In this document: positions 30,045 through 50,952 of the stretch, piece by piece
Layout of the letters: the number at the start of each line of letters is the position of its first letter
Position numbering within the stretch: position 1 is the stretch's first letter
Source: Eubacteriales bacterium
Lineage (GTDB): Bacteria > Bacillota > Clostridia > Christensenellales > CAG-138
Length of the DNA stretch: 64,000 nucleotides
Assembly: GCA_028694155.1 (NCBI GenBank)
Contig: JAQUTY010000007.1
Location: 50,901-114,900, forward strand
Direction: 5' to 3'
The notes under the pieces: generated by a model
The model's database searches: none
What the model was told of the DNA's origin: nothing
The model's input: only the letters and a program-made list of their open reading frames with translations
Program-made: the position numbers and the translations under genes

Positions 30045-30053
30045 GTATGCTCC

Positions 30054-30962
30054 CTACCTTTCCTTCTTTGTCTTATGCTTAATCCACAGATACCAGAGCA
30101 ACCCCATAGGCAACGCTGCTATGACATAACCTTTGCGCCTTAGCTCCTTGCAAAACAGCTTACGCTTTGCAATCATGCACTCTGAAACGTAGTGCATTGC
30201 GGTGATGAAGTAAGTCCGCTTTCTGCTCCCGTCCATAGACAGTGTGAATATCCTAAAATCAGCAAACGAATTGGGTCGTTTGAAATAGTTTTTGTATTTA
30301 TTGTTTGATACTCCATCGGTCTGATAATTGACCACTACCGTGGGCTCGTTTAGAATGAGCATATCAAAATGTTGCGCTATCTGCAAAAACTGCCGTGATG
30401 CATTCAATGATGTCTCGCCCGGATATTTTTTAGCAGGCGTAGTCAGCTCATAGCATTTTGTACGATACAGCATGGCAATATCCGTTGCAGTTCTCCCATA
30501 CAATCCCGCAACCGTCTTTCTGAAATTGATGGTTTTCAGCTCGTTGGGAAAGCTACCGCCAATGATTCTTCCATCGGCGTAACAATCAAGGCTCACTATG
30601 CCTGCCACAGCTTCACTTCCGTACTGCTTCCAAAATGAGAGCAGCCGTTCGACCGCATCATCCAATAAATAGTCGTCCGAGTCAACGCACATACACAGCT
30701 CTGTTTCAATATGCTTTATTGCTTCGACATATGCAGTTTGAAGTCCGCCATTTTCCTTATAGAAATACTCAATGCGAAAGCCGCAATCTTCATTTTGCCA
30801 TTGACTTACAACGTTCCTTGTATCATCGGTCGATCCATCATCAATGACCATCCAAATGAAATCTTTGCAGGTTTGACGCTTTAATGCCTCGAACGCCGGC
30901 AAAAGCAGCTTTGCCCTGTTGAATGTTGGAGTGAAGATGGTAAGGCGAATATTACTTTCCAT
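30054..30962 (-). CDS. glycosyltransferase family 2
   Basis: 302 aa. LTIFTPTFNRAKLLLPAFEALKRQT...IDDGSTDDT...VDSDD. Confidence 0.85.
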   Translation of the reverse strand: MESNIRLTIFTPTFNRAKLLLPAFEALKRQTCKDFIWMVIDDGSTDDTRNVVSQWQNEDCGFRIEYFYKENGGLQTAYVEAIKHIETELCMCVDSDDYLLDDAVERLLSFWKQYGSEAVAGIVSLDCYADGRIIGGSFPNELKTINFRKTVAGLYGRTATDIAMLYRTKCYELTTPAKKYPGETSLNASRQFLQIAQHFDMLILNEPTVVVNYQTDGVSNNKYKNYFKRPNSFADFRIFTLSMDGSRKRTYFITAMHYVSECMIAKRKLFCKELRRKGYVIAALPMGLLWYLWIKHKTKKER

Positions 30963-31923: not shown

Positions 31924-32898
31924 TTACAGATTCTCCTTGTACCACTCGATTGCCAGTTTTATTCCATCTTCAAAGCTATAATCGGGGTCGTAGCCTAAAA
32001 GACGTTTTGCCTTTGAAATATCGGCGTTGCTGTGCTTGATGTCGCCCGCACGGTCGGGGCCGAATTTTGGTTCGATGTCCTTGTTCAACGCCTGTGTTAA
32101 GCCGTGATATATGTCTATAAGATACTCTCTGCCACCGTATGCAATATTGTATGCCTGACCTGCCGCTTCCTTGGGTGCGAGCATTCCCTTTAGGTTCGCT
32201 TCGACCACATTTTCTACATATGTGAAGTCTCTGCTCTGCTTGCCATCGCCATTGATAACGGGCTGCTCACCGTGCATGAGCTGCTTGATAAACTTGGGAA
32301 TTACCGCTGCATATGCGCCATCGGGATCCTGTCTTCTGCCAAACACGTTGAAATATCTGAACCCGATCGTTTCCAGTCCATAGTGCATATAATACATCTT
32401 GCCATATTCTTCATCGCAGCGTTTTGTAAGAGCATAGGGCGAAAGAAGGTTGCCCTCCCTGCCCTCGGTCTTTGGAAGAATCGGCTCATCGCCATAGACG
32501 CTGGAGCTTGAAGCATAGCAAAAACGCTTGACGCCATTCTGCCTTGCTGCCTCCATCATGTTTAGCGTGCCGCGAATGTTGATTTCCTCATACAAAAGGG
32601 GCATGGCAATGCTCCTAGGGACAGAACCCCACGCCGCCTGATGCGAAACATAATCGACACCCTTACAAGCAGCCATACAGGTATCAAGGCTGCGAATGTC
32701 GCCCTCGATTAGCGTAAAATTCGGATTTGCCTTGAACGGCTCTACATTCTCGCGCTTGCCCGTCGAAAAATCGTCAAGGCAACGCACTTTGTATCCCATC
32801 TGGAGCAACGACTCAACGATGTTCGACCCGATGAACCCTGCGCCACCTGTGACCAGAAAAACCGAATCCTTGGGGAAAATCAGATGTTTATATCCCAT
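31924..32898 (-). CDS. TviC/WbpP-like NAD-dependent UDP-GlcNAc(A) 4-epimerase
   Basis: 324 aa. Long collinear similarity to my recollection of Salmonella TviC: VTGGAGFIGSN, DDFSTGKRENV, HQAAWGSVPRS, SSSSVYGD, LSPYALTK, RYFNVFGRRQDPDGAYAAVIPKF, NGDG..SRDFTYVENV, GD..HS.ADISKA. Confidence 0.75.
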   Translation of the reverse strand: MGYKHLIFPKDSVFLVTGGAGFIGSNIVESLLQMGYKVRCLDDFSTGKRENVEPFKANPNFTLIEGDIRSLDTCMAACKGVDYVSHQAAWGSVPRSIAMPLLYEEINIRGTLNMMEAARQNGVKRFCYASSSSVYGDEPILPKTEGREGNLLSPYALTKRCDEEYGKMYYMHYGLETIGFRYFNVFGRRQDPDGAYAAVIPKFIKQLMHGEQPVINGDGKQSRDFTYVENVVEANLKGMLAPKEAAGQAYNIAYGGREYLIDIYHGLTQALNKDIEPKFGPDRAGDIKHSNADISKAKRLLGYDPDYSFEDGIKLAIEWYKENL

Positions 32899-34217
32899 TA
32901 CAGCCTCCAGTAGTAGTAGCCTGCGTCCTCAAATTCCTTGCGACTTAGCAGACCCTTTATGTCTAGCAGCACCCTTTTATCATCCTTGAACAGCTCGTCC
33001 ATCTGCGCTCTTGTGATGGAGGTAAAGTCCGTATGCGCCACCGCCAGAATGACTGCGTCCATATTCCTGATTTCGTCCATCGATACAAACTCCACCCCAT
33101 ATTCACGCTTCGCCTCGGCAGCATCTGCCTGCGGATCGGTGATGAGTGGCTCGATGCCGTATTCTTTGAGTTCATTGACTATATCAATTATCTTCGTATT
33201 TCTCGTGTCGGGACAGTTCTCCTTGAATGTGAAGCCCAAAATGGCAACTCTTGCATGCTGAACAGGCTTATCCGACTTGATGAGCTGCTTTACAAGGTTC
33301 TCGGCAACATACTTGCCCATGTCGTCATTGATGCGTCTGCCTGCCAAAATGATCTGACTGTGATACCCCAGCTCCTCCGCCTTATATGTAAGATAGTAGG
33401 GATCAACGCCAATGCAATGTCCCCCAACAAGACCGGGAGCAAATTTAAGAAAGTTCCATTTTGTCCCTGCTGCTTCAAGCACCGCCTTTGTATCTATGCC
33501 CATCTTATTAAAGATGACCGAAAGTTCATTCATAAATGCTATGTTTATATCACGTTGGCTATTCTCAATGACCTTTGCGGCCTCGGCGACCTTTATGCTC
33601 TGTGCTCTGTGTACTCCTGCCTCGACCACCAGCTCATACACCTTGGCAACCGTATCGAGCGTCTCATCGTCCATACCGCTGACAATCTTTGTGATAGTCT
33701 CCAATCTGTGTACCTTATCGCCCGGATTGATGCGCTCGGGACTATATCCTATCTTGAAATCGACTCCGCACCTAAGTCCACTCTCACGTTCCAAAATGGG
33801 AACGCAAATGTCCTCAGTTACTCCCGGATAGACCGTGCTTTCGAACACAACGATGCTGCCCTTACAGAGATTTCTTCCAAGGATTGTGCTTGCCCCCTCA
33901 ACGGGACTTAAATCCGGAGTATGATCCGGGTTCACGGGTGTGGGAACTGCTACAATGTGAAATTTGGCTTCTCTCAGCTTTGTTTCATCCGAGGTGAAGT
34001 CAACCTTGCACGCTGAAATAGCATCGTTGCCAACCTCTTTGGTTGGATCTACTCCGCTTCTGTACATGTCGATTTTATGCTTGTTGAGATCAAAGCCTAC
34101 AACATTCAGTTTCTTGGAAAATGCCACCGCTATGGGCATTCCAACATAGCCCAAACCCACCAGTGACAGCTTCTCCTCATGGTTAATCAGTTTTGCGTAA
34201 AGATCATTCATACTCAT
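32898..34217 (-). CDS. TviB/WbpO-like nucleotide-sugar 6-dehydrogenase (UDP-GlcNAc to UDP-GlcNAcA)
   Basis: 439 aa. Blocks shared with TviB as I recall it: GLGYVG.P.AV.F, VGFD.N, VPTP, ESTVYPG.TE, GYSPERINPGDK.HRL, SIKVAEAAKVIEN.QRD.NIA, PGLVGGHCIGVDPYYL, ILAGRR.ND.MG, ILGFTFKENCPD.RNT.IID. Confidence 0.8.
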   Translation of the reverse strand: MSMNDLYAKLINHEEKLSLVGLGYVGMPIAVAFSKKLNVVGFDLNKHKIDMYRSGVDPTKEVGNDAISACKVDFTSDETKLREAKFHIVAVPTPVNPDHTPDLSPVEGASTILGRNLCKGSIVVFESTVYPGVTEDICVPILERESGLRCGVDFKIGYSPERINPGDKVHRLETITKIVSGMDDETLDTVAKVYELVVEAGVHRAQSIKVAEAAKVIENSQRDINIAFMNELSVIFNKMGIDTKAVLEAAGTKWNFLKFAPGLVGGHCIGVDPYYLTYKAEELGYHSQIILAGRRINDDMGKYVAENLVKQLIKSDKPVQHARVAILGFTFKENCPDTRNTKIIDIVNELKEYGIEPLITDPQADAAEAKREYGVEFVSMDEIRNMDAVILAVAHTDFTSITRAQMDELFKDDKRVLLDIKGLLSRKEFEDAGYYYWRL

Positions 34218-35311
34218 ACTCCCATTATTCTTCGCATCTGCGCGTTGACTTTATTTACATCATATTTTTCTTCTGCGATGGTGCGACTTCTCTGCCCCAT
34301 TCGCTTGACCTCATCGCCATGTTCAATGCACCAAAGCATCTTTTCCTCTAGTGTCTTGCTGTCCCCAACTGGTATCAAAAAGCCATTATCGCCGTCCTTA
34401 ACGGTCTCCCTGCAACCGGGTGCATCTGTTGTAATTATTGCCCTGCCAGTCGCCATCGCCTCAAGCACGGTGCGTGGAGTGCCCTCATGATATGACGGCA
34501 GCACGAACACTGAACATTCCCTGTAAAACCTATCTACATCATCACGCTTACCATGGTACTCAACAACATTGCTGCACTCGTCCATGTCCTCAATCTTTAT
34601 GGCGGTAGGATTGGAGTCCAGCGGGCCGACAACGGAAAACTGTGCTTGGGGATATTTTTCCTTGGTCGCCTTGGCTGCTGCGATAAACTCTGCAATGCCC
34701 TTGTCAAAAAGCAACCTTCCGACAAAAAGAAATGATGCTTTATTCGGCATCGGCGTGAGTGCAAACTTATCAAGATTCACACCTGACCCATTGATGATAC
34801 TCGTTTTCTCCCTGCTGAGCAGCCTTTTGTTTACGAATACCTCCAGATCGTCACAATTCTGGAACATCACTCCATCGGATTTTTTTAACGCCATTGTGTA
34901 AAGCATTTCCATCACAAGGCGCACCAGACGGTTTTTAAGTCCGCCCTCCGAGCGAAACACCGAGCCTAGACCATTGATGGTGCAATAGCCCTTACAACCT
35001 TTAGGCTTTGCCATCAAGCCGTATATCACTGCCTTAGCACCGCTGAAGGCATACACCATGTCTGGCTTTTCTTCCCTGAAAATTCTCTTGCAATCCCTAT
35101 ATGTCTTTCTGTCGGACAGGGGATTGCTCCCCGTTCGCTGCATGAAGATGGTACGCATCTGTACTGCGCCGCACAAAAAAAACTTTGTTGCGTCCCAACT
35201 GTCGGGTGTGAGAACCAGCAGCTCGTGTCCCAAATCCAACAGGCCGCACATGAACTCCCGTCTCGATTTATACACGTCCTCTGCCGATACTGCAACTATG
35301 GCTATCTTCAT
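34214..35311 (-). CDS. glycosyltransferase family 4 (GT-B)
   Basis: 365 aa. The C-terminal segment VLPSYHEGTPRTVLEAMATGRAIITTD.PGCRE.V is the E-x7-E region of GT4/GT1. Confidence 0.85.
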   Translation of the reverse strand: MKIAIVAVSAEDVYKSRREFMCGLLDLGHELLVLTPDSWDATKFFLCGAVQMRTIFMQRTGSNPLSDRKTYRDCKRIFREEKPDMVYAFSGAKAVIYGLMAKPKGCKGYCTINGLGSVFRSEGGLKNRLVRLVMEMLYTMALKKSDGVMFQNCDDLEVFVNKRLLSREKTSIINGSGVNLDKFALTPMPNKASFLFVGRLLFDKGIAEFIAAAKATKEKYPQAQFSVVGPLDSNPTAIKIEDMDECSNVVEYHGKRDDVDRFYRECSVFVLPSYHEGTPRTVLEAMATGRAIITTDAPGCRETVKDGDNGFLIPVGDSKTLEEKMLWCIEHGDEVKRMGQRSRTIAEEKYDVNKVNAQMRRIMGV

Positions 35312-36000
35312 TGTTCGCCCCTTTTCAAGACGCCTGTAACGGTCTTTATCATGGTCGATATATCGTTGATTAGACCAAACGAGCGAAGCTGTTCGAGATT
35401 GTATTTCATCTTTTGGGGCAGAACCTGCTCGATATAAGCACGTTCGGGATCCTCGGCGGCACCCAAAATTTTATCCTCGTCCTTGTAACGTATGCTTGCA
35501 ACAGAAGTAATTCCCGCACTCTGCAAAAGAGTAGCTTTCATCTGATCGGTATAGTGATCAACGTATCTTACCACCTCGGGACGAGTGCCCACAAAGCTCA
35601 TCTGTCCAATCAGAACATTGAATAGTTGCGGCAGTTCATCAAGCCTATACTTGCGCAAAAATCTTCCGATTCCCGTGATGCGAGCATCCTCGCCGACCGT
35701 GACCTGTGTGCCCAGCTTCTCGGCGTTCTTGACCATTGTGCGAAACTTTACTATTCTAAATTGCTTTCCGTATCGGGTAACTCGCACCTGTCGAAAGAAC
35801 ACTCCTCCTTTTGAGCCCAGTCCCACTAAAGCGGCAAGAACCAAAAACAGAGGTGAAAACACAATCAGCATCAATGCGGACATTACTATGTCGAAACCAC
35901 GCTTAACAAAGCGTTGAACAGGCTTGCCCTTCAATATGACATAATATGGACGAACCTCCTCGGTTCGCAATTCTTGTGGCAGCCTATCCCAGCTTCTCAT
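35308..36000 (-). CDS. small (PglC/EpsL-type) undecaprenyl-phosphate sugar phosphotransferase; priming enzyme
   Basis: 230 aa. KRGFDIVMSALMLIVFSPLFL...FRQ.R.....F...KFRTM...DELPQLFNVL.G.MS.VGTRPE. Confidence 0.88.
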   Translation of the reverse strand: MRSWDRLPQELRTEEVRPYYVILKGKPVQRFVKRGFDIVMSALMLIVFSPLFLVLAALVGLGSKGGVFFRQVRVTRYGKQFRIVKFRTMVKNAEKLGTQVTVGEDARITGIGRFLRKYRLDELPQLFNVLIGQMSFVGTRPEVVRYVDHYTDQMKATLLQSAGITSVASIRYKDEDKILGAAEDPERAYIEQVLPQKMKYNLEQLRSFGLINDISTMIKTVTGVLKRGEQ

Positions 36001-37199
36001 AGACAGTCTTTAAGTGTATCAATAACATACTGCACGTCCTCATCGGATAGTTTTGTGTGCAGCGGTAGCGTGATCTCGTTTTGATACTGGCAAAACGCAT
36101 TCGGATAATCGTCCATCGAATATCCCATATTCTTGTAAGCGGTCATCATTGGCAGGGGCTTGTAATGGACGTTGGTCGCAACTCCACGCTCCGCCATTCG
36201 TGTTATCAGCGCATTTCTATCCGTTTCAGTTGCATTTGGTATCCGCAACAGGTAGAGATGCCCGCTGGACTGAACGTTATGGGAATAATGCTCGAGCGCA
36301 CTCAATCCCAAGCTCTTTGCAGCCTCATCATATCTTTCGATAATGCTTCGTCTTCTTGCCAAAATATCCGTATAACGGTCGAGCTGTATCAGCCCTATTG
36401 CCGCCATAATATCAGTCATGTTGCATTTGTATGCAGGATAAATAATGTCATATTCCCATGCGCCAATTTGATTTTTCTTGAACGCATCCTTGTTCTGTCC
36501 GTGCAGCGAAAAGAGCATGAATTGATTGTACAACCACTCGTTGTCCAATCCCTCACGGGGCAGCCATGTTGCTGCACCGCCCTCGCCCGTTGTCAAATTC
36601 TTCACAGCATGAAACGAGAAACAGGTGAAATCGGCAGCCTCGCCGCTGTTTTTGCCGTCTCTTCTTGCCCCAAACCCGTGCGCACTATCGGCTATGACAA
36701 TCACTCGGTCGAACAGCCTTTGAAGCTCCGTTGAGGGTGAATACAGTTCCTTTTTGCTTTCGATAGCAGCAAGGATGCGTTTATAATCGCACATCCTTCC
36801 CCCGATATCAACAGGCATTATCGCCTTGGTGTTTTTGGTTATCTTGCCTGCAATACTATCATAGTCGAGTTCAAATGAATCCTTCAAAACATCGATCATG
36901 ATTGGAGTTGCTCCAACGTGACAAACAACAGAGGCGGTAGCAGTATATGTGTATGCTGGAACAATGACCTCGTCGCCATCTTTGATGCCCAGTATTCTCA
37001 AGCACAGCTCCATCGCTGCGGTAGCCGAATTTAGGCACACAACCTTTGGTGCGCCGATCCATTCCGCCAACCGTTGCTCAAACAACTTAGTCCGCTTGCC
37101 AGTAGTAATCCAACCCGAACGCAAGGCTTCTGCAACTTCGTTGCACTCTGCCTCTCCTATATCGGGCGGTGAGAAGGGAATTGTTCTCATATTCTGCAT
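35997..37199 (-). CDS. DegT/EpsN/PglE-type UDP-4-keto-6-deoxy-HexNAc aminotransferase
   Basis: 400 aa. FSPPDIGEAE...V.EALRSGWITTG......FE..LA...G, and FSFHAVKNLT (PLP lysine). It is the first gene of the long minus-strand array. Confidence 0.85.
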   Translation of the reverse strand: MQNMRTIPFSPPDIGEAECNEVAEALRSGWITTGKRTKLFEQRLAEWIGAPKVVCLNSATAAMELCLRILGIKDGDEVIVPAYTYTATASVVCHVGATPIMIDVLKDSFELDYDSIAGKITKNTKAIMPVDIGGRMCDYKRILAAIESKKELYSPSTELQRLFDRVIVIADSAHGFGARRDGKNSGEAADFTCFSFHAVKNLTTGEGGAATWLPREGLDNEWLYNQFMLFSLHGQNKDAFKKNQIGAWEYDIIYPAYKCNMTDIMAAIGLIQLDRYTDILARRRSIIERYDEAAKSLGLSALEHYSHNVQSSGHLYLLRIPNATETDRNALITRMAERGVATNVHYKPLPMMTAYKNMGYSMDDYPNAFCQYQNEITLPLHTKLSDEDVQYVIDTLKDCL

Positions 37200-41437: not shown

Positions 41438-42217
41438 TTAGAATCCTCGTCCGCTGCCTCCGCCGCCGAAGCCTCCACCTCCGCCGCTAAAGCCGCCGCC
41501 TCCGCCGAAGCCGCCGCCACGTCCTCCTCTGCCTCTTCCGCCAAAGAACAACAGAGCTGCTGCCCCTCGTCCTCCTCGTTTGAGGGAGACACTAATAAAA
41601 ATGATTAACAATGCTGCTCCTACCAGCAGGGAAATGATATCCTTTACTGTTAAATCCTCATCGACCGTTTGGGAAGAAGCGATTGCATTTTCGATATCCT
41701 GCGGAGTTTCAATGCCGTACTTCTGGTAAATAATTGCGGCTATGTGCGTGTATCCTGCAAGCATACCGTCTGAATAATCATCATTTTTAAGGTACGGCGT
41801 CATTACTCCGTCCTGTATGCGTCCCGATTGTGCATTTGTAATGGCACCCGTCAATCCTTCGCCAACCTCGATTGAATACTGTCTGTCCTCTACGGCAAGA
41901 AATATCAATACGCCATTGTCCAGCTCTTTATCGCCGATGCCCCATCGTGTAGCAAGATCGTACGCCCTGTCACGAAGGTCGCCGCCCTCAAGACTATTTA
42001 CCGTGACAACAACAATCTGTGCCTTGGTCGCAGATTGCAGCGCAGCACCCATTGCTGACATTTGAGTCTCGGCTTCATCAGAAATTACATTGGCAAAATC
42101 GTTGACAAAGAATGCGTCCGTAGGCTCAAGCGTATCGAAATAGTCGGTCGTGCTTGAGCAGGCGCACATCAGTAAGATTATTGTCAGCAGCAACAGCGCC
42201 GCAAGACGCTTTCTCAT
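41438..42217 (-). CDS. TPM domain-containing protein (YgcG-like) with C-terminal TM segment and Gly-rich tail
   Basis: 259 aa. Signal/lipobox LLMCACSS, TPM-type core (FVNDFANVIS...QIVVVTV.SL), and a tail GGRGRGGRGGGFGGGGGFSGGGGGFGGGGSGRGF. Confidence 0.75.
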   Translation of the reverse strand: MRKRLAALLLLTIILLMCACSSTTDYFDTLEPTDAFFVNDFANVISDEAETQMSAMGAALQSATKAQIVVVTVNSLEGGDLRDRAYDLATRWGIGDKELDNGVLIFLAVEDRQYSIEVGEGLTGAITNAQSGRIQDGVMTPYLKNDDYSDGMLAGYTHIAAIIYQKYGIETPQDIENAIASSQTVDEDLTVKDIISLLVGAALLIIFISVSLKRGGRGAAALLFFGGRGRGGRGGGFGGGGGFSGGGGGFGGGGSGRGF

Positions 42218-42220
42218 CTA

Positions 42221-42817
42221 TCAATCTCCAAAGTCTACAACCGGCACATCCAAAGAACCTGCGCTCGCCTCAAAATAATCGACCTTCTCCATTCCCATTA
42301 TCCCTGCAAAAATGACCCCGGGAAAACGGCGAATCTTTGAGTTGAACGCCTGAGCAGCCTCATTGTACTTGGTGCGCGATCTCTTTATCTCGTTCTCTGT
42401 TCCCGAAAGCTCGTCTTGAAGTGCAATGAAGTTTTCATTCGACTTCAGCTCGGGATAAGCCTCTGAAATTGCCAGCAGTCTTGAAATGGCACTGTCCATC
42501 TGCTGGCTTGCATCGTTCATCTCTGCAACCGTGCCTGCGCTCATCATTGCAGCTCTTGCATCGGCTATGGCAGTGAAAATCTCCTCCTCGTGCTGGGCAT
42601 AAGCCTTGACCGTGGATACAAGATTGGGAATTAAATCCGCACGACGCTGCAAATCAACCTGCACGTTGGACTTCATGCTCTCAACATTCTCCTGCGAGTC
42701 AATCAGCCCGTTGCAGCTAGATATGCTGACAATGACCAAAATCAAAATGACAGCAGCCACTATTGCTAGTATTGTTAAACCTGTTTTACCTTTCATATTG
42801 TCCTTCCTTTCATACAA
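42221..42817 (-). CDS. LemA family protein
   Basis: 198 aa. N-terminal TM segment, then ...QVDLQRRADLIPNLV.TVK.YA.HE......A.ARA...YPELK....F..LQ.EL.GTEN.I...R..YN. Forms the classic LemA-TPM pairing. Confidence 0.85.
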   Translation of the reverse strand: MYERKDNMKGKTGLTILAIVAAVILILVIVSISSCNGLIDSQENVESMKSNVQVDLQRRADLIPNLVSTVKAYAQHEEEIFTAIADARAAMMSAGTVAEMNDASQQMDSAISRLLAISEAYPELKSNENFIALQDELSGTENEIKRSRTKYNEAAQAFNSKIRRFPGVIFAGIMGMEKVDYFEASAGSLDVPVVDFGD

Positions 42818-42867: not shown

Positions 42868-43512
42868 TCAGCTCACTTGCGTATAGCCGAACAACGTATC
42901 AAATGATGCAATGTCGGTGTAATCCAGACTGCCTGCCGCAAGCACAAAATTGTTTATGTCGGGCGACACCGTAACATACAGCAGCATATACATGCGCACT
43001 CCGTCATTATCTGTCTCGGCAAGCGCCCTTATGGCAGGATAGCCTGCTATGGTGGCGTTCGCATCGGACTTGGTGACCTGAATGTCCGCATCTGCAATCA
43101 ACCCCGACAAAATCGAATTAACCTGCTCCTGCGTCAGCCCACTCTCTGCGGTGACCGTGGGAACCTGAATATTGTTGCGCATAGATATGATGGTTCCAGA
43201 GTCGATATAATATTCATTGGATATTGCCGTGAAAGTTCCGCTGAGTTCGGACGCTGTCCACTCTTGCGGAATGTATATCGTAAGTCCTGAAAATGCAACG
43301 GGCTTTGATGCAATCGAGGGCTGGGCAGTTGACGGCGATGCGCTCGGATCGGCAGCAGTCATCACATCCAAATCGGATTGCGTTGGCTCCTGCGTAGGCT
43401 CCAAGGACTGCTCTTGCGTCTGATCCTGCTCCAATTGCTCGTCCTTACTTTTGCAAGCAACGATGCTAAGCACAAGGCAGGCTGCCAAAATGATGGCTAA
43501 AAATTTTCTCAT
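42868..43512 (-). CDS. hypothetical lipoprotein
   Basis: 214 aa. MRKFLAIILAACLVLSIVACKSK (lipobox), a Q/E/T/P-rich linker, then a globular domain with no motif I recognise. Confidence 0.6.
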   Translation of the reverse strand: MRKFLAIILAACLVLSIVACKSKDEQLEQDQTQEQSLEPTQEPTQSDLDVMTAADPSASPSTAQPSIASKPVAFSGLTIYIPQEWTASELSGTFTAISNEYYIDSGTIISMRNNIQVPTVTAESGLTQEQVNSILSGLIADADIQVTKSDANATIAGYPAIRALAETDNDGVRMYMLLYVTVSPDINNFVLAAGSLDYTDIASFDTLFGYTQVS

Positions 43513-43532
43513 ACGTCCTCCTTATTCAAAGG

Positions 43533-44081
43533 CTACGGCGTTGGCGTGCCAAACAAATCTTCAAATGTTACGACGGTTGCGCCATCCTCATTCCAATCAT
43601 CACTCCAGCCATCACTTGATGATGGCAGCCCAACCTCGCCGTTTGGATCGTCAGTCGCCTGTGCAGTTGAAGTTGGCACTACGGTTGGAGCTGCTGTCTC
43701 CTTGGCAGGCGCAACTGTCTGCGTAGGTGCATTCGATGCACTGGGCGGTGCTGTTGGAGAATCGGGATAGGCTTCGGGGTTGGAATAGACGACCTGCGCA
43801 TCTTGGGGGATAACGCTGATGGTATCCAGCTCGTGCCACTGATCATTCTCATAGTAGCCTACAATAGCATCGGGCGGCAACTCTGTACCTTCCGCGATTT
43901 CAACCAGCTCATAAACGGTCTGACCCGCCTCGTTAGTCGTCTGTATCGCATACGCCTTTTTCGCTTCATCGCCACGCTTGCCGATAAACACGATGAGCAA
44001 CACAACCAACGCCAAAAGCACTATGCCAAGTGCGATGACGCCAATCCATTTTTTATCTATGGCGAACTTATTCGTCTCCAT
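43533..44081 (-). CDS. hypothetical single-pass membrane protein with Pro/Thr/Ala-rich region
   Basis: 182 aa. TM segment WIGVIALGIVLLALVVLLIVFIG. Coding looks consistent and there is a good RBS (GAGGAG). Confidence 0.55.
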   Translation of the reverse strand: METNKFAIDKKWIGVIALGIVLLALVVLLIVFIGKRGDEAKKAYAIQTTNEAGQTVYELVEIAEGTELPPDAIVGYYENDQWHELDTISVIPQDAQVVYSNPEAYPDSPTAPPSASNAPTQTVAPAKETAAPTVVPTSTAQATDDPNGEVGLPSSSDGWSDDWNEDGATVVTFEDLFGTPTP

Positions 44082-44212
44082 AACATACTCCTCGCTACTT
44101 TATTCAAGACATAATACCATACATTCAAAAAAAGTGCAAATTGTAATTGCAACAAAGGTGTAACATGAGCGTGAATTTGAACACTCCAAATACCTAAACG
44201 TATGAAGATTGG

Positions 44213-45259
44213 CTACGGGTTGACCTCAGTTGGCACAAGGTATATGACATCACGCAGGTTACGATTGCCCGTGGGACTGTTCACCAACTTGTCATGGTAT
44301 AGCAGTCGAACCGTCTCACCGCCGTCAAGATTGTATGCGGCCCGACAGCCAAGGTCATACATGAGCTTTGACAGTTCAATCAGCGTCATTCCCTGCGAGT
44401 ATCCAGACTGTCTGCCGTCCACAAGCACCAAGCAATAATGCCCTGGCTCGTAGTAACCAATAGCGGCTCTGGGATTTCTCGCGCTGATGGAATCGGGAAG
44501 GTTGAACTCTCGCATGGGCGCACCAACCGAATCGAGAAGCATCGGCCCGAAGCTCCAAGTCTGCCAAGGTTCTTTCTGCAAAATCGCATCAACATATGTG
44601 TCCTGAGGCGAATAGCACTGCATCGTGCCGTCCTTATACAGCACGCAGGCGTCCCATTTGTCAATAATTTTGGTGCGCAGCACCTCGCCGTTTCGCACGA
44701 TAAGTCCGCCCGAACGTGTCTCAACGGAATCGCCCGAAATTGCCAAAAGTGCGCCTAGCTCCTTGGATATGGACGTTGCCGATGCCGTTCTGTTGCCGAA
44801 CGATCCGCCTGCAAAATAGGTGCGCAGGCACTCGATATTCTGAACGAAAATATCAACCACAAAGTAGGTCAGCGGGTCTCCTGTTCGCCTATCGTCTGCA
44901 ACCTTTGTAATGGTGATGTCTATATCCTTGCTCTTGAATGAATTCTTTTTGTCTACTATGTCGCCATCGGTAAATCTGCCTTCAAAGCGTGTTCCGCACA
45001 GTCCGTAGGGCGTTGGCGTTGGCTCCTCTGTCGGCTCTGCCGTGGGGGTTGGAATTGGCGTAGGTATGGGGGTAGGCTCTGCCGAATAGTCCATGGAATA
45101 CACAAGTGTTTCAAGCTCTGTTGGGGTCGGCATCTGTGTATTTTGAGGTGCAGTAGTATCTGTTGCCGATGGCACGCTTGAGGATACGGGCTCGCCATTG
45201 CCACATGACGCCGCAAAAAGAATTATCAATGCTGATATAAGTATGACGCCCCGTTTCAT
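44213..45259 (-). CDS. phosphodiester glycosidase (NAGPA-type) family lipoprotein, paralogue 1
   Basis: 348 aa. Lipobox LFAASCG and linker PTPIPTPIPTPTAEPTEEPTPTP. Core: LAISGDS...GLIVRNGEV...PRAAIGYYEPGHYCLVLVDGRQSGYS.GMTL.ELS.LMYDLGC.AAYNLDGG. Confidence 0.75.
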   Translation of the reverse strand: MKRGVILISALIILFAASCGNGEPVSSSVPSATDTTAPQNTQMPTPTELETLVYSMDYSAEPTPIPTPIPTPTAEPTEEPTPTPYGLCGTRFEGRFTDGDIVDKKNSFKSKDIDITITKVADDRRTGDPLTYFVVDIFVQNIECLRTYFAGGSFGNRTASATSISKELGALLAISGDSVETRSGGLIVRNGEVLRTKIIDKWDACVLYKDGTMQCYSPQDTYVDAILQKEPWQTWSFGPMLLDSVGAPMREFNLPDSISARNPRAAIGYYEPGHYCLVLVDGRQSGYSQGMTLIELSKLMYDLGCRAAYNLDGGETVRLLYHDKLVNSPTGNRNLRDVIYLVPTEVNP

Positions 45260-45316
45260 TGCTGCCCCTCAAGTAATCTCAACCTCAATATACCACACGG
45301 CAAGCGCACATTCAAG

Positions 45317-46321
45317 CTATCCTTCGGCTTGAATGTAAATTATGTCGCTGACTACTCTTGATGAGCTGGTGGGATTGTTGTATATAGCCCCATTCCAAAA
45401 TAAACGTGCTGATCCGCCGCCATCGAGGTTGTATGCTGCCGTGCAGCCCAAATCATATGCAAGCTGAGACAGGTCTGAAAGCTTCAGGCCCTCCGAATAG
45501 CCCTCACGTCTGCCGTCAACAACTATAAAGCAGTAGTGACCCGGCTCATAATAACCTATTGCACAGCGAGGATTGCCCCCTCCTAGCGAGGAGTTGAACT
45601 TGGTCTTGACGTTGCCATCTTGATCTAAAAGCGCAGGCCCGAACGACCACGCCTGCCACGGATCACGTTCCATTATCGCGTCAAGACTATACCCGCCCGA
45701 TAGATAAGTCTCCATAGTTCCGTCTCTGTACAGAACGCAGATGTCCTCACCTTCATGCGGAGTCTTTCGATACAGCTCGCCATTTCTTATCACGATTCCC
45801 TGCTTATGGAAGCAGTAGTAATCTCCCGAAATCGCTAATATCGCATTATGGTCAACGGCAATATCTTCAACATGTCCGGTGTAGTTCTTTGTAAAATCGT
45901 CACGAGCAGCAGCCGTCTTGATGCTTGTCACATCCTGCACATAAATATCGACAACAAAATATGCGACCAAATTTGAATAGGTTTCCGTATCCGATACCGA
46001 CCTAACCTCAAAGGAAATGTTCTTGCTCTTGTACGACACATCGGTCATCTCGCCACCATCATCCGAAAATTTATCGGGATACCTTCCGCCACAAATTCCA
46101 TCAGGGGTGGGTGTTGGTTCAGCAGTTGGCGTAGGTGTCGGCATGGGAGTAGGCGCAGGCGTTGTCGTCTGTAAAATAATTACCTCCGAAGTAGGTATAG
46201 ATGTGTTTGATGCCACTTTGTCTGCTGATTCCCCGTTTTCACCGCATGAAGTGATGAACAGAAAAACACAGATGGCAATAAACAACAGACCCAATACTCG
46301 ATAATGAATATTTCTTTTCAC
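45317..46321 (-). CDS. phosphodiester glycosidase (NAGPA-type) family lipoprotein, paralogue 2
   Basis: 334 aa. Lipobox FITSCG and linker TPAPTPMPTPTPTAEPTPTP. Core: ILAISGDYY...PRCAIGYYEPGHYCFIVVDGRREGYSEGL...AYNLDGGGSA. Confidence 0.75.
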   Translation of the reverse strand: MKRNIHYRVLGLLFIAICVFLFITSCGENGESADKVASNTSIPTSEVIILQTTTPAPTPMPTPTPTAEPTPTPDGICGGRYPDKFSDDGGEMTDVSYKSKNISFEVRSVSDTETYSNLVAYFVVDIYVQDVTSIKTAAARDDFTKNYTGHVEDIAVDHNAILAISGDYYCFHKQGIVIRNGELYRKTPHEGEDICVLYRDGTMETYLSGGYSLDAIMERDPWQAWSFGPALLDQDGNVKTKFNSSLGGGNPRCAIGYYEPGHYCFIVVDGRREGYSEGLKLSDLSQLAYDLGCTAAYNLDGGGSARLFWNGAIYNNPTSSSRVVSDIIYIQAEG

Positions 46322-46328
46322 GGCTTAT

Positions 46329-47354
46329 TTAGCGTAGCCCCTCCCCTTCGGCTTGAATGTAAATTATGTCACTTATCTTTCGTGATGAGCTGCTGGGACG
46401 GTTAGTAATATTGCCGTTCCAAAATAGCTGTGCCGAGCCGCCGCCGTCCAAATTGTAGGCGGTGATGCAGCCTAGATCGAACATGAGCTGCGATAAATCC
46501 GTCATTGTAATTCCCTCAGAGTAGCTGCCGCTTCTGCCGTCTACTATGACAAACAGATAATGTCCCGGTTCGATATAGCCAAGTGCGCAACGTGGGTTAA
46601 TTCCACGCACTCTTGAATTGAAAGTGTTCGTTGGTTCGCCCTCGGGCAGCAATGCCGGCCCGAAGCACCAAATCTGCCACGGGTCACGAGCCATGATTGT
46701 GTCAAGATCATACTCACCCGATAGATAAGTCTCCATCGTACCGTCCATATACAGAACGCAGATGTCCTCACCTTTATGTATTGTGTCTCGGTACAGCACT
46801 CCGTTTCTGAGCACTAAGCCAACACTGTGGTTGTTGAAATAATCGCCCGATATTGCCACCAATGCGTTGTTGTCATTTGCCATATCCACTACCTTTGCAA
46901 TGCGATTCTTTGAAAAATCGTCGCCTGCAGCAGCAGTTTTAATAAGCGTAATATCTTGAACATAGATATCTATTACAAAATAGGTTATTACATTGTTATA
47001 CGTCTGCTCATCATGTACCTTTGTCACCGTGAAGCTGACGTTCTTGCCCTTGTATCCGTTTTCTGTAAGCTCATCATCCGAATCAACAAACTTGTCGGGA
47101 TATCTGCCTCCGCAAAGTCCGCTGGGCGTAGGCGTGGGAGATGGCGTGGGCGTTGGAGATGGCGTGGGGCTTGGGGTTGGGGTTGGAGATGGCGTTGCAC
47201 TTGGGTCAAGCGTGGGCTCGATTGAAGAAATCTCAACAATGGGTATGTCTTGTTCCGTTGCCGAGGTTGAAATCATAAGTATAACAACAGCACCGATTGC
47301 TACAAATGCAATCAGCATTGATAATGCTATTGCCAATCCAAGTCTCTTTGACAT
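46329..47354 (-). CDS. phosphodiester glycosidase (NAGPA-type) family membrane-anchored protein, paralogue 3
   Basis: 341 aa. N-terminal TM anchor and linker PSATPSPTPTPSPTPSPTPTPSPTPTPS. Core: LVAISGDYF...PRCALGYIEPGHYLFVIVDGRSGSYSEGI...AYNLDGGGSA. Confidence 0.75.
   Translation of the reverse strand: MSKRLGLAIALSMLIAFVAIGAVVILMISTSATEQDIPIVEISSIEPTLDPSATPSPTPTPSPTPSPTPTPSPTPTPSGLCGGRYPDKFVDSDDELTENGYKGKNVSFTVTKVHDEQTYNNVITYFVIDIYVQDITLIKTAAAGDDFSKNRIAKVVDMANDNNALVAISGDYFNNHSVGLVLRNGVLYRDTIHKGEDICVLYMDGTMETYLSGEYDLDTIMARDPWQIWCFGPALLPEGEPTNTFNSRVRGINPRCALGYIEPGHYLFVIVDGRSGSYSEGITMTDLSQLMFDLGCITAYNLDGGGSAQLFWNGNITNRPSSSSRKISDIIYIQAEGEGLR
47125..47200 (-). repeat. in-frame tandem microrepeat encoding the (P-T/S)n linker
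   Basis: The plus strand shows reiterated GGCGTGGG(A/C)G(A/T)TGGAGAT-like units. Weaker versions occur at about 46100-46170 and about 45000-45070 in the other two paralogues. Confidence 0.7.
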
Positions 47355-47357
47355 CTA

Positions 47358-47921
47358 TCACAGTCCTATCAAATGTTCCACCAGTATTTTTATGCCCAAT
47401 ACTACCAAAACAATACCACCTGCGATCTCCGCTTTTTTCTTGAAGCGAACTCCGAACTTGTTGCCAATACATACGCCGCAAAATGAGATGATCGCAGTAA
47501 GCACTCCTATGATTGTTATTGCAATCCATAGAGGATGAATCCACAGGGAAGGAAGCGTTACTCCCACCGCCAGAGCGTCAATGCTGGTGGCAATGGCGAG
47601 CACGAACAATTTGCCGATGCCTGCAATGCCGCCGTTCTCCTGCTCCTTATCCGTGCAAGCATCGAAAATCATCTTGGCACCGATAATAAGCAGAAGCCCA
47701 AAGGCTATATAAGGCGAGTAGCTGTCGATATATGAGGAAAACCAATCGCCCAAAAACGCACCGACAAGTGGCATGAGCGCTTGAAATCCGCCAAAGAACA
47801 ACGCTATTAAAAGCGCGCGCTTTATCATAATTTTTCTCATCGATAAGCCTTGGCACAGAGAGACCGCAAATGCGTCCATCGCCAAGCTAACCGCAACTAA
47901 CACCAGTTCCGCAATTCCCAT
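47358..47921 (-). CDS. mntP: manganese efflux pump
   Basis: 187 aa. MGIAELVLVAVSLAMDAFAVS...ATSIDALAVG carries the two DUF204-type repeats typical of MntP. Confidence 0.85.
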   Translation of the reverse strand: MGIAELVLVAVSLAMDAFAVSLCQGLSMRKIMIKRALLIALFFGGFQALMPLVGAFLGDWFSSYIDSYSPYIAFGLLLIIGAKMIFDACTDKEQENGGIAGIGKLFVLAIATSIDALAVGVTLPSLWIHPLWIAITIIGVLTAIISFCGVCIGNKFGVRFKKKAEIAGGIVLVVLGIKILVEHLIGL

Positions 47922-47982
47922 AATATTATCCTACCTCGCAGTTGTATCAAAACTGCATCAAAAAAATAAATTCTGACAAAAA

Positions 47983-48010
47983 CATGCGCATTATAACACC
48001 AATGCGCATG
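47983..48010. promoter_or_regulatory. perfect 9-bp inverted repeat overlapping the mntP -10 box (candidate operator)
   Basis: CATGCGCAT-N10-ATGCGCATG. On the minus strand the promoter reads TAGACA-17-TGtTATAAT, with the repeat arms flanking and overlapping the -10. Confidence 0.45.
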
Positions 48011-48095
48011 ATTGTCTATCATAATTGACGCTGCAAATGTGACATTTAGGTAAAGTCAAATCGACTGGCTATTTGTGATTGTGGCTAAACACCGA

Positions 48096-49124
48096 CTACC
48101 AACGATTTTTGACCTTTTCGGCAAAGCCCCTAAGGTTGTCTACGGTCAAAACGGTTCCGTCATCGAGCATGACCGTCCCATTGAAACTGCCAAACACTTG
48201 ATGCTGCTTTGAGCATATGAAAAGCGCGTTAGTATCGGAATGGCGGTCCAGAATGGGTGTGAAGGTCATTGTGAATCTTCCGTCAGTGGAGGTCATGTTC
48301 CACGGAGACATATAATCGTCCCTGCCGTTCTTTTGGGGAATACCAAAGTCCACGCCCTCGAGCTTATGGGCGATGCCGTCAAGAAAGAACATATTCTCGC
48401 TGGCAGCAGACGTGTCGCCAAATCCGTAGCCTATGTTGAATCCAATCCTGTGTCCGTCCTGCTCGCCCTGCGCCGCACCCCAGTACCATGTGTTCGAATA
48501 TGTCCACACTCCTCTGCCCCAATCAAGAAGCCCAAAGCTGTTATCCTTGTCAAACTCGTAGGTCTTGCCCCTGTACTCGGCGTGACCGCTTGCACGCATG
48601 GCAATAATTTTTTGGTTGTAGTAGAATGCGGTTGCTTTGTTTGCAAACGGTGTAGCTATAACCATGCTGTCGCGCGGCTCGTCCTCAAGCCACAGCTCGC
48701 AATAGAAGGGTGTTTTGTCCTCGAAGTTCTCCATGTACAGCACAAGATGCCGCTTGTCGTCCTCATGAGTGAAAGAACCCATGCAGCCATTCAGGCTCTT
48801 TTCAACTGCCCCGTATTTGCTGGAGGGCGGAAAATTTAGCTTACCCATGGGAAACCAAAACATCGTGGACTTGGTGCGCTCACAAGGCGTCCTAAAATCG
48901 AGAAACGATGCAGAGATCATCCCCATGTAGGAATTGTCGTCAACTGTCAGCGCAACTCCAAAATCATCGTTGTATATCAGATAGTAGTCCCATTCCTTGA
49001 TGCGGCTTTTGCCTGCCTTAATGGCAGTGCGGTCGTACTTTTTAACCAGCTCTGTTGAATAGCCTGCTTGATGTAGGCGACCGTTTTGATCGAGCAGATC
49101 TCCCTGATTTAGAATGTGCTGCAT
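48096..49124 (-). CDS. DUF2804-like conserved hypothetical protein
   Basis: The ATG at 49124 lies 5 nt after GGAGG; the 17-aa extension in the track is discarded. About 342 aa and soluble. The motifs WDYY, WGRGVWTY..TWYWGAAQG are as I recall for DUF2804. Confidence 0.5.
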   Translation of the reverse strand: MQHILNQGDLLDQNGRLHQAGYSTELVKKYDRTAIKAGKSRIKEWDYYLIYNDDFGVALTVDDNSYMGMISASFLDFRTPCERTKSTMFWFPMGKLNFPPSSKYGAVEKSLNGCMGSFTHEDDKRHLVLYMENFEDKTPFYCELWLEDEPRDSMVIATPFANKATAFYYNQKIIAMRASGHAEYRGKTYEFDKDNSFGLLDWGRGVWTYSNTWYWGAAQGEQDGHRIGFNIGYGFGDTSAASENMFFLDGIAHKLEGVDFGIPQKNGRDDYMSPWNMTSTDGRFTMTFTPILDRHSDTNALFICSKQHQVFGSFNGTVMLDDGTVLTVDNLRGFAEKVKNRW

Positions 49125-49252
49125 AGCAACCTCCGCAATACATGTATATTTTGATATTACTCTGCTCACTTTCAAAAGTCAACCTCACGCCAAGATGTAT
49201 CTTGTATTTGCATGGTCTAAATGCTATACTTTATTTTGAAAGAGGGGTCGAA

Positions 49253-49879
49253 ATGATAAAGCCCAAAGTTCTGCTTACAACCTTTGTGCCGTTTGGGGGC
49301 GAGAGCGTTAATCCTGCTCAACTCTGCGGTGAGCTTGTACATTCTGATATTGCACAGATTATGCGTGTCGATCTTCCCGTGAGCTATGCCAAGGTGGGCG
49401 TTGCGGCGGCGCAAGCGGTTGAGAATGTAAAGCCCGATATGGTACTCTGCTTAGGGCAAGCCGCCGGCAGACAGGGCTTGAGCTTTGAGCGTGTCGCCAT
49501 AAACATTGATGATGCTCAAATTTGCGATAATTGTGGTGAGCTTAGATGCGATTTGGCGATCGAGCCTTTGGGGAAAACCGCCTATTTTTCAACGCTCCCC
49601 ATAAAAGCCATGATCAATGCGGCACAAGAGGTCGGCATACCTGCTTGGCTGTCAAACAGCGCAGGAACCTACGTCTGCAATCACCTATTATATGAGCTGC
49701 TGCACAATTTTTTGGATATTCCCTGTGGCTTTGTTCATGTTCCGCTTGTAAAAGAGCAGGCGGAGCAACGACTTTCCTGTGGCAAGGTGACTCAGCTGGA
49801 GCCATATCTCTCGCCCGAATCCGCCGCAAAGGGCATTAGCGCCGCCATCGACACCGCCATAGCATCTATTGGGCTGTAA
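49253..49879 (+). CDS. pcp: pyroglutamyl-peptidase I
   Basis: The ATG at 49253 follows AGAGGGG. MIKPKVLLTTFVPFGGESVNPA...LPVSY......GQAAGR....ER.AIN......SAGTYVCNHL.Y (catalytic Cys) ...VHVP. Confidence 0.88.
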   Translation: MIKPKVLLTTFVPFGGESVNPAQLCGELVHSDIAQIMRVDLPVSYAKVGVAAAQAVENVKPDMVLCLGQAAGRQGLSFERVAINIDDAQICDNCGELRCDLAIEPLGKTAYFSTLPIKAMINAAQEVGIPAWLSNSAGTYVCNHLLYELLHNFLDIPCGFVHVPLVKEQAEQRLSCGKVTQLEPYLSPESAAKGISAAIDTAIASIGL

Positions 49880-49908
49880 GGGTGTGGAATCGCATAATAC
49901 AATCAACT

Positions 49909-49940
49909 AAAGAGACTTCCGAACACTCGGAAGTCTCTTT
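49909..49940. terminator. 14-bp perfect hairpin between convergent pcp and the GGGtGRT gene
   Basis: AAAGAGACTTCCGA-acac-TCGGAAGTCTCTTT. The U-tracts are short and come only from the stem ends. Confidence 0.6.
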
Positions 49941-49959
49941 GAGGTTTGGATATTGGGGA

Positions 49960-50952
49960 TTACAGGGTTTCGGAGACGGCAACTGCGACCGCAACCGTTG
50001 CGCCGACCATGGGGTTATTGCCCATGCCGATGAGTCCCATCATCTCAACGTGTGCAGGGACGGAGGACGAGCCTGCGAACTGCGCATCGGAGTGCATTCT
50101 GCCCATTGTATCGGTCAAGCCGTAGGATGCAGGGCCTGCCGCCATGTTGTCGGGATGCAGGGTTCTGCCTGTGCCGCCGCCTGATGCAACGGAGAAATAC
50201 TTCTTGCCGTTCTCAACACACCACTTTTTGTAGGTGCCTGCAACGGGATGCTGGAAGCGTGTGGGATTGGTGGAGTTGCCCGTGATGGAAACGTCCACGT
50301 TCTCATGGCGCATGATTGCAACGCCCTCGTTTACATCGTCCGCACCATAGCAGCGAACCTTGGCTCTCTCGCCATCGGAAAATGCCTTTGTATAGGTAAT
50401 CTCCAGCTTGCCCGTCTTATAGTCGTAGGCTGTCTCACAATATGTAAATCCATTGATTCTGGAAATAACATAGGCTGCGTCCTTGCCCAAACCGTTCAGA
50501 ATGACCTGCAGGGGCTTCTTTCTGACCTTGTTGGCCGTTCTTGCGATGCCGATTGCACCCTCTGCCGCCGCAAAGCTCTCGTGTCCTGCCAAGAATGCAA
50601 AGCAACCTGTTTCTTCTCTCAAAAGCATTGCCGCAAGATTGCCATGACCCTTGCCAACATCACGCTGGTCCGCAACTGAACCCGGAATGCAGAAGGACTG
50701 CAGTCCTATGCCGATGCACTCCGCCGCTTCCGCTGCGCTCCTAACACCCTTTTTGATGGCGATTGCTGCGCCCACGGTGTACGCCCAGCAAGCATTCTCA
50801 AATGCGATGGGCTGGATTCCACGAACTATGCCAAACGCATCAACGCCTGCCTTGTCGCAGATTTCCTTTGTTTCTTCGATGCTGTTGATGCCGTACTCTT
50901 TAAGCACGCCGTTGATCTTGTCTACTCTTCTATCGTAACCTTCAAATAACAT
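49960..50952 (-). CDS. GGGtGRT family protein (uncharacterised)
   Basis: 330 aa. The literal family signature is present in FSVASGGGTGRTLHPDNMAAGPASYG. Confidence 0.75.
   Translation of the reverse strand: MLFEGYDRRVDKINGVLKEYGINSIEETKEICDKAGVDAFGIVRGIQPIAFENACWAYTVGAAIAIKKGVRSAAEAAECIGIGLQSFCIPGSVADQRDVGKGHGNLAAMLLREETGCFAFLAGHESFAAAEGAIGIARTANKVRKKPLQVILNGLGKDAAYVISRINGFTYCETAYDYKTGKLEITYTKAFSDGERAKVRCYGADDVNEGVAIMRHENVDVSITGNSTNPTRFQHPVAGTYKKWCVENGKKYFSVASGGGTGRTLHPDNMAAGPASYGLTDTMGRMHSDAQFAGSSSVPAHVEMMGLIGMGNNPMVGATVAVAVAVSETL

Follow-up and report, generated by a model that had tools for sequence, protein, structure and literature searches.

Organization of the locus

The window analyzed here, meaning the whole 64-kb stretch of DNA, comes from an uncultured monoderm Clostridia ('Eubacteriales') bacterium of the gut or rumen and carries three consecutive minus-strand genes of the NAGPA (phosphodiester glycosidase) family, designated P3, P2 and P1 in their order of transcription. 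P3 (46329..47354, 341 amino acids (aa)) has a transmembrane-type anchor, a (P-T/S)n linker and a DGGGS motif. P2 (45317..46321, 334 aa, GTG start) is a predicted lipoprotein with the lipobox FITSC, a Pro/Thr linker and DGGGS, and P1 (44213..45259, 348 aa) is a predicted lipoprotein with the lipobox FAASC, the longest and bipartite linker, and DGGET replacing DGGGS. An earlier reading of this DNA (hereafter the original prediction) had described three consecutive minus-strand open reading frames of 334-348 aa, and both the positions and the lengths of the three genes bear this description out. Directly upstream of P3 is mntP (47358..47921, minus strand), which encodes a member of the Mn2+ efflux pump family (Pfam PF02659, E=1.6e-45). 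Transcription runs from mntP through P3 and P2 to P1, with intervening gaps of 3, 7 and 57 nucleotides (nt), and mntP, P3 and P2 are probably co-transcribed.

Beyond P1-P3, no further NAGPA copies were detected in the window by tblastn. In the NCBI records, where P1 and P2 were looked up, P1 (MDD3401331.1) and P2 (MDD3401332.1) are both annotated as 'phosphodiester glycosidase family protein [Eubacteriales bacterium]'. The start of P2 is called differently by gene callers on identical DNA, resulting in products of 243, 322 or 334 aa.

Family membership, fold and catalytic residues

All three proteins match the Pfam family PF09992 (NAGPA), with 89.5 bits (E=3.8e-25) for P1, 105 bits (E=6.4e-30) for P2 and 108 bits (E=7.8e-31) for P3 against a gathering score of 25 bits, and the matches span approximately positions 1-168 of the 169 in the profile. 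The phosphodiester glycosidase domain, for which the original prediction had proposed a hidden Markov model (HMM) search, is therefore confirmed in each copy. An AlphaFold model of P2, based on an alignment of 106 homologues (alignment A2), has a mean predicted local distance difference test score (pLDDT) of 90.4. Residues 5-26 of the model form a signal helix, the linker is of low confidence (pLDDT <50 at residues 29-42), and a pLDDT of 90 is reached from approximately residue 61. When this model was compared with the PDB by Foldseek, the top matches were 3OHG, 6PKI, 6PKY, 6PKU and 6U11 (E ~1e-13, probability 1.00, ~262 columns), with target-normalized TM-scores of 0.59-0.70, and 5H3K and 6OZD were more distant matches. 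No unrelated fold appeared below E=0.1 in this comparison, the next fold having E=0.13. Sequence and profile searches against PDB chains concur, as 3OHG and 6PKI/6PKG/6PKU/6PKY/6U11 were matched.

Human NAGPA splits the glycosidic C-O bond of N-acetylglucosamine (GlcNAc)-1-P-mannose (Man) with retention of configuration (PMC13474241). Both D286 and R316 are essential, mutation of D286 abolishing activity, and the loop 286-DGGGS-290 binds the sugar-phosphate, the backbone amide of its fourth residue contacting the phosphate (PMC13474241). From a comparison of 8 sequences, this motif has been called strictly invariant among phosphodiester glycosidases (PMC13474241). The corresponding loop is NLDGGGS in P2 and P3 and NLDGGET in P1, with the Asp of DGG in the place of human D286. 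This Asp (D300 in P2 numbering) is invariant across the 106 homologues, and HMM alignments set the loop in register with the family members in the PDB. R322 of P2, located 22 residues past the catalytic Asp, is also invariant in P1-P3 and in the 106 homologues and aligns with an Arg of 6OZD, and D326 (P2 numbering) is likewise family-invariant and present in all three proteins. Altogether, P1, P2 and P3 each keep 28/28 invariant columns of the 106-sequence alignment.

The fourth residue of the loop behaves quite differently. Among 223 homologues, 24 motif variants were found, the general form of which is DGG-x-[ST]; DGGGS occurs in 17 and DGGET in 4 of these proteins, and Gly occupies the fourth position in 19. 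The full DGGGS loop therefore does not appear to be truly defining for the bacterial family. Because this residue varies throughout the subfamily, the Glu of P1 is unusual when compared with the vertebrate enzyme but ordinary among its own relatives, and it may be regarded as a candidate specificity position and not as a sign of inactivation. Differences at this position between tandem copies were also considered as possible evidence of sub-functionalization; such differences were found in 9/10 loci, which is approximately what chance would give with 24 variants, and they are not taken as evidence here.

Membrane anchors and Pro/Thr/Ser linkers

The N-termini of P1 and P2, whose translations were inspected by eye, agree with the lipobox pattern [LVI..][ASTVI][GAS]-C, in the form of MKRGVILISALIILFAAS-C in P1 (..LFAASC, followed by G) and MKRNIHYRVLGLLFIAICVFLFITS-C in P2 (..FITSC, followed by G). 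P3 begins with approximately 25 hydrophobic residues and its first Cys does not occur before residue 81, which indicates that it is not a lipoprotein. The spacer between the anchor and the motif G[LI]CGG comprises 50-61 residues in P1, P2 and P3, with a P+T+S fraction of 0.52-0.67, so that the proposed architecture of anchor, linker and catalytic domain holds for all three proteins. The catalytic domains span approximately residues 86-348 of P1, 75-334 of P2 and 79-341 of P3.

At the DNA level, the three linker-coding regions (all on the minus strand) are less alike. The P3 region (47121..47282, P+T+S fraction 0.67) is the only one with a clear imperfect tandem microrepeat, detected by Tandem Repeats Finder (TRF) at 47123-47205 with periods of 6/12/18/30 nt and 65-92% matches. 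The Pro/Thr-rich region of P2 (46100..46249), which corresponds to the disordered part of the model, has no tandem repeat at TRF score >=30. The P1 region (45005..45187) encodes two P/T-rich stretches with ELETLVYSMDYS between them, and TRF yields only GGCGTT x2.5 at 45009-45023. The linker-coding microrepeats reported in the original prediction are thus clear in P3, but they amount to just 2.5 hexamer copies in P1 and are absent from P2 at the score used. In a scan with NCBIfam, the only matches were of low complexity, fell below threshold and lay in the linkers (SslE, TonB and S-layer).

Proposed function and gene neighborhoods in related genomes

Judging from how the proteins are anchored, from their linkers and fold, and from the conservation of the Asp and Arg, extracytoplasmic hydrolysis of sugar-1-phosphodiesters is the most likely activity of this protein family at the locus, and we infer the localization, chemistry and substrates of P1-P3 on this basis. 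P1 and P2 would be tethered at the outer face of the membrane via a lipid-modified Cys and P3 via its uncleaved hydrophobic N-terminus, and the disordered Pro/Thr/Ser spacer of approximately 50-60 residues would project the catalytic domain into the cell wall. There, by analogy with vertebrate NAGPA, the domain would most likely cut the C1-O bond of a sugar-1-phosphodiester, by which the sugar would be freed and a phosphomonoester left on the polymer. The most plausible substrates are glycopolymers of the cell's own envelope, in which linkage units, or side sugars attached through phosphodiesters, of wall polysaccharides or teichoic-acid-like polymers would be cleaved during remodeling or turnover.

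A word-indexed search, in which 8000 candidates were scored, gave at least 6094 homologues at E<=1e-10, nearly all of which are from Clostridia metagenome bins; family members are also present in the cultured Lachnotalea glycerini DSM 28816 and Anaeromicropila herbilytica TB5. The gene neighborhoods of related loci provide additional clues to function. A gene encoding a fusion of a family 2 glycosyltransferase (GT2) with a GtrA/DPMS_TM domain (PF00535 + PF04138) is present in 23/82 related loci, where it mostly adjoins the NAGPA gene, frequently with an overlap of a few bases. Located just upstream of the NAGPA match (at approximately position 6001), it is co-directional with the NAGPA gene in loci L016, L020, L024, L028, L029, L042, L047, L049, L056, L057, L065, L073 and L082, and divergent from it in L041, L045, L048, L053, L060 and L084. 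Enzymes of this type synthesize polyprenyl-phosphate sugars, and the conserved GT2-GtrA/NAGPA pair suggests that the family works with polyprenyl-phosphate-sugar chemistry. In the window itself, the surface-polysaccharide cluster located 7 kb from P1-P3 (described below) is further context in favor of an envelope role.

The principal alternative is that these enzymes serve nutrient foraging, uncapping foreign phosphodiester-linked sugars, such as those of yeast or fungal phosphomannan, host mucin or lysosomal-type glycans, or the teichoic acids of other bacteria, so that other hydrolases can proceed, in which case the paralogues would reflect dietary range. The relatives are indeed overwhelmingly from rumen and gut metagenome-assembled genomes (MAGs), as judged by record titles; several paralogues per genome together with a hypervariable loop residue are common in glycan-degrading families that have diversified in substrate, and surface tethering would fit contact with external polymers. 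However, no glycoside hydrolases, sugar transporters or regulators of utilization loci flank P1-P3 or recur in the 82 related loci, the sole recurring sugar-related neighbor is the biosynthetic GT2-GtrA fusion, and tethers of approximately 50-60 residues would probably keep the catalytic domain inside the wall of the cell itself or close to it. Since the GT2-GtrA gene is so often adjacent and carbohydrate-utilization genes do not recur, an envelope role is preferred, and we regard foraging as unlikely.

Several points weigh against the assignment to the cell's own envelope and against parts of the wider explanation. All GT2-GtrA-linked genes belong to one half of the tree and P1-P3 to the other, and no GT2-GtrA gene was found in the 64-kb window. 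The chemistry is extrapolated from vertebrate proteins with just ~20% identity, and R322 is the presumed equivalent of human R316, although the vertebrate NAGPA alignments end before that position. With a hypervariable fourth loop residue, which is Glu in P1, a phosphodiester substrate may not be guaranteed for every copy. The trees are neighbor-joining trees without support values, and the literature that was searched contains no demonstrated substrate for any bacterial member of the family. Weighing both sides, the chances that a phosphodiester of the cell's own envelope is the substrate seem to us about even. The explanation as a whole, which joins tethered extracytoplasmic phosphodiester glycosidases, own-envelope substrates and the evolutionary history described below, is considered reasonably probable.

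A far more specific version is quite doubtful, namely that the Clostridia NAGPA subfamily represents a wall-remodeling set directed at the cell's own envelope, in which the bonds cleaved would be linkages of the GlcNAc-1-P-MurNAc (N-acetylmuramic acid) type, by which wall polysaccharides are anchored, or those of polyprenyl-phosphate-sugar intermediates, the specificity of each tandem paralogue would be set by the hypervariable residue of the phosphate-binding loop, and the conserved translational coupling to the Mn2+ exporter MntP would reflect a local metal supply to these exoenzymes.

Strain variation and the status of P1

Six contigs from six different sequencing runs contain the same 3301-nt block with 99.15-100% identity, no gaps and at most 28 substitutions, and these independent assemblies do not differ in copy number or in the length of any of the three linkers. 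Since the copies are just 51-62% identical at the DNA level, their collapse or expansion by an assembler is impossible; an assembly artefact, which the original prediction had named as a possible objection, is ruled out and the locus is genuine. The idea of slippage-prone linkers, on the other hand, finds no support, as there are zero indels in 3301 nt across the six assemblies.

In two of the related sequences (L004 and L005), 27/28 substitutions of the 3.3-kb block are located in P1, where 23 codons are affected, 10 of them non-synonymously. Over a longer region, these sequences differ from the window by 41 substitutions in 43000-45300 (lipo214, tm182 and P1), by 1 substitution in 45300-48000 (P2, P3 and mntP) and by 76 substitutions in 48000-50000 (DUF2804 and pcp). 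Such a mosaic, which homologous recombination between strains usually leaves, indicates recombination blocks, one boundary of which would lie in the gap between P2 and P1.

These data also bear on the possibility that one or more copies, notably P1, are non-catalytic binding proteins or pseudo-enzymes without phosphodiester recognition. The DGGET loop, in which Glu stands where human NAGPA has the Gly that contacts phosphate through its amide, might be taken as a sign of lost activity, and so might the concentration of strain substitutions in P1 and its share of non-synonymous changes. However, P1 keeps every one of the 28 family-invariant residues, including the essential Asp; substitution at the loop position is the rule in the subfamily, as the low counts of both DGGGS (17/223) and DGGET (4/223) illustrate; its dN/dS against P3 is approximately 0.27; and the strain differences run on into the two downstream genes, which points to a mosaic recombination block and not to decay. 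The argument from DGGET thus appears weakened, and we consider a pseudo-enzyme improbable. Because purifying selection is evident and every family-invariant residue is kept, P1, P2 and P3 are probably all active, possibly on different substrates.

Divergence and evolutionary history of the three copies

P2 and P3 are 58% identical at the aa level (66% in the core) and 61.5% at the nt level, whereas P1 has 45% aa identity to P2 and 42% to P3, with ~52% nt identity in both cases. Calling P2 and P3 close copies was therefore an overstatement, and the greater divergence of the first paralogue was correctly noted. The proportion of synonymous differences (pS, Nei-Gojobori) is 0.71-0.78 for every pair, i.e., at or beyond saturation, and dN/dS, where dS could be computed, is 0.11 for P2-P3 and 0.27 for P1-P3. 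The three genes are old and under purifying selection, and the saturation of synonymous sites in all pairs rules out a recent duplication. In neighbor-joining trees, P2 and P3 are mutual nearest relatives, followed by P0002 (from locus L087), and P1 branches elsewhere. The nearest relative of P1 is P0122 (53% identity by BLASTP, 52% over core columns), which stands alone in its genomic context, with tilS/hpt/ftsH on one side and a phosphoglucomutase gene on the other. Hence a 'recently expanding' set is not supported, and 'triplication' is better replaced by one old lineage-specific duplication (P2/P3) beside an older paralogue (P1).

Two regions of P2 and P3 are much more similar than the rest. 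A 25-nt string, correctly reported in the original prediction together with the common C-terminus SDIIYIQAEG, occurs exactly twice (45322-45346 and 46346-46370) and can be extended to 26 nt (45321..45346, minus strand, identical to 46345-46370), a run that codes for the 3' end DIIYIQAEG. An internal patch of P2 (45696..45753, minus strand), which encodes KGEDICVLY..DGTMETYLSG, shares exact runs of 25 and 20 nt with P3 (46717-46774). Codon bias and amino-acid conservation were examined as causes of the 25-nt identity by 5000 synonymous-codon shuffles within P3, in which protein and codon usage were kept: three runs >=20 nt were obtained in 0/5000 shuffles and one run >=25 nt in 5/5000. Furthermore, the shared strings are absent, with up to 2 mismatches allowed, from the L087 orthologue and all other fetched loci, and both causes were ruled out on these grounds. 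Short gene-conversion tracts between P2 and P3, at the 3' end and in the internal patch, would be the best explanation of the three exact runs.

The view that the locus represents a recent and ongoing tandem amplification with contingency-like linkers varying by slippage could draw on the three tandem copies, the identical strings of 20-26 nt in P2 and P3, the DNA microrepeat in the P3 linker and the frequent clustering of same-genome copies in the tree, but it is very improbable given that all pairs are synonymously saturated with 51-62% nt identity, that P1 is on another branch, that six independent assemblies agree in copy number and in the length of every linker, and that the identical strings form short patches surrounded by diverged sequence, a pattern consistent with gene conversion but not with a recent origin.

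Comparison with other genomes bears on the history of P2 and P3. The MAG GCA_030527115 is collinear with the window over RmuC-YhhN-x-GGGtGRT-DUF2804-MntP (63-88% aa identity), and in this genome (L087) mntP is followed by a single NAGPA gene with a P3-like transmembrane N-terminus (MSKRL..), where synteny stops. P3 is the positional orthologue of this single copy. The copy-number check suggested for related genomes was made on 80 related loci taken from GTDB species representatives, in which two NAGPA genes within 6 kb were found in 10/80 and three in 2/80; tandem arrays of 2-3 copies thus occur in 12/80 loci (~15%). An mntP gene is located upstream of NAGPA genes in 6/80 of the GTDB loci, and also in L087, and 4 of the 6 mntP-linked loci have a transmembrane-anchored copy followed by a lipoprotein copy. 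These pairs, which belong to rumen and gut Clostridia MAGs (e.g., L018, L019, L021 and L055), show the same order of mntP, transmembrane copy and lipoprotein copy as mntP-P3-P2. However, the copies in the L018-type pairs form their own clades, implying either a duplication independent of that of P2/P3 or a history masked by gene conversion, and these pairs are without a third, P1-like copy, unlike the locus in the window.

The most economical history would therefore start from one transmembrane-anchored copy downstream of mntP as the ancestral state. Its ancient duplication would have given rise to P3 and the lipoprotein P2, after which short gene-conversion tracts may have re-homogenized the pair locally, and P1 would be a far more ancient paralogue that ended up next to this pair. 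Both the family membership of P1-P3 and this evolutionary history can be accepted with near certainty.

In addition to the mntP-linked gene, GCA_030527115 contains other NAGPA-family genes. At least 4 such genes are distributed over 3 loci (L011, L082 and L087), one of which is mntP-linked, one GT2-GtrA-linked and one with two opposite-strand copies approximately 3 kb apart. The genome from which the window derives probably has further NAGPA copies outside the 64 kb.

Relationship to known systems and significance

Vertebrate NAGPA (the 'uncovering enzyme') shares the Pfam family, the Asp of the D-G-G loop and, as judged from the P2 model, the catalytic fold with P1-P3; the catalytic domains matched by this model are those of zebrafish, guinea-pig and Xenopus NAGPA. 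Both the vertebrate enzyme and, by their predicted localization, P1-P3 are extracytoplasmic or luminal and membrane-tethered. Apart from the low identity (~20%), they differ in architecture, as the vertebrate protein has a furin-cleaved propeptide, an EGF-like stalk and a C-terminal transmembrane segment, whereas P1-P3 have an N-terminal lipobox or transmembrane anchor and a Pro/Thr linker. They also differ in the loop, which is described as invariant DGGGS in the vertebrate enzyme and is DGG-x-[ST] in the subfamily of P1-P3. Moreover, the substrate of P1-P3 cannot be Man-6-P-GlcNAc on lysosomal hydrolases, unlike that of vertebrate NAGPA.

The closest known structure is 3OHG, which is BACOVA_00430, a DUF2233 protein of Bacteroides ovatus (Das et al. 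2013, as cited in PMC13474241). It was the best PDB match in our searches (profile E=1.5e-13; Foldseek E=1.1e-13 and TM-score 0.65 with the P2 model) and is, like P1-P3, a single-domain protein of bacterial origin whose physiological substrate is not known. Identity is 22%, and BACOVA_00430 comes from the diderm Bacteroidota whereas the host of P1-P3 is a monoderm member of Clostridia. Comparative genomics has also placed the NAGPA domain among cell-surface or wall-directed enzymes in Bacillota, in the ShfP-family calcineurin-like and prok-TelC multidomain proteins; these are large multidomain proteins with ligand-binding modules, whereas P1-P3 are single-domain. Otherwise, the full-text literature that was searched holds only structural-genomics and comparative mentions of bacterial members, and the original description of them as uncharacterized appears to stand.

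P1-P3 are ordinary members of a very common and already annotated bacterial family, their arrangement occurs in approximately 15% of related genomes, and the locus itself neither opens nor answers a long-standing question. What makes it of interest is solely the uncharacterized state of the bacterial family, a point that applies well beyond this locus. Gut and rumen Clostridia have NAGPA-family proteins in abundance, often several per genome; establishing the activity of a first member would allow thousands of genes to be annotated and could uncover a new step in how phosphodiester-linked wall polymers are turned over. For such work, P1-P3 constitute a convenient natural panel of three diverged proteins, which between them have two kinds of anchor and two versions of the phosphate-binding loop.

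Other features of the window

The best sigma-70-like promoter match upstream of mntP is at 47990..48018 on the minus strand (11/12, extended -10), as a match to the consensus only, and a weaker promoter-like site is present in the gap between P2 and P1, at approximately 45287-45315. An inverted repeat at 47983-48010, CATGCGCATT(N8)AATGCGCATG, with arms of 10-11 bp, overlaps the -10 of this best promoter-like site, and a run of T comes after it on the minus strand; the repeat could serve as an operator or terminate transcription of the DUF2804 gene upstream. Control of the operon by Mn through a Mn2+ (yybP-ykoY) riboswitch, or through another known RNA ahead of mntP, was also considered and rejected, since Rfam gave no match at E<=0.1 over 40-52 kb.

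A minus-strand cluster for surface-polysaccharide biosynthesis of approximately 20 kb (17398-37199) is located 7 kb from the NAGPA genes, with unrelated genes between. It encodes two DegT aminotransferases, a Bac_transf initiating transferase, a glycosyltransferase of family 4 (GT4), several GT2s, a UDP-glucose dehydrogenase and an epimerase, as well as two TupA-like ATP-grasp enzymes, an EpsG polymerase, PGA_cap, RmlA/RmlC/RmlB and a 785-aa pyruvyl-transferase/FrhB-type fusion. There is no obvious sugar-phosphate transferase in the cluster besides the initiating Bac_transf.

Downstream of P1 on the minus strand are tm182 (43533-44081), which immediately follows it and encodes a transmembrane protein of 182 aa, and lipo214 (42868-43512), which encodes a lipoprotein of 214 aa. 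Neither has a Pfam match or a homologue among the 80 related loci. Both products (42868-44081) contain low-complexity stretches rich in Pro/Thr/Ser/Ala, and the two genes share the divergent strain block of P1. Still further downstream on the minus strand (41438-42817) are a LemA-family gene and, after it, a TPM-domain gene, the product of which has a long Gly/Arg-rich C-terminal tail (..GGRGRGGRGGGFGGGGGFSGGGGGFGGGGSGRGF).

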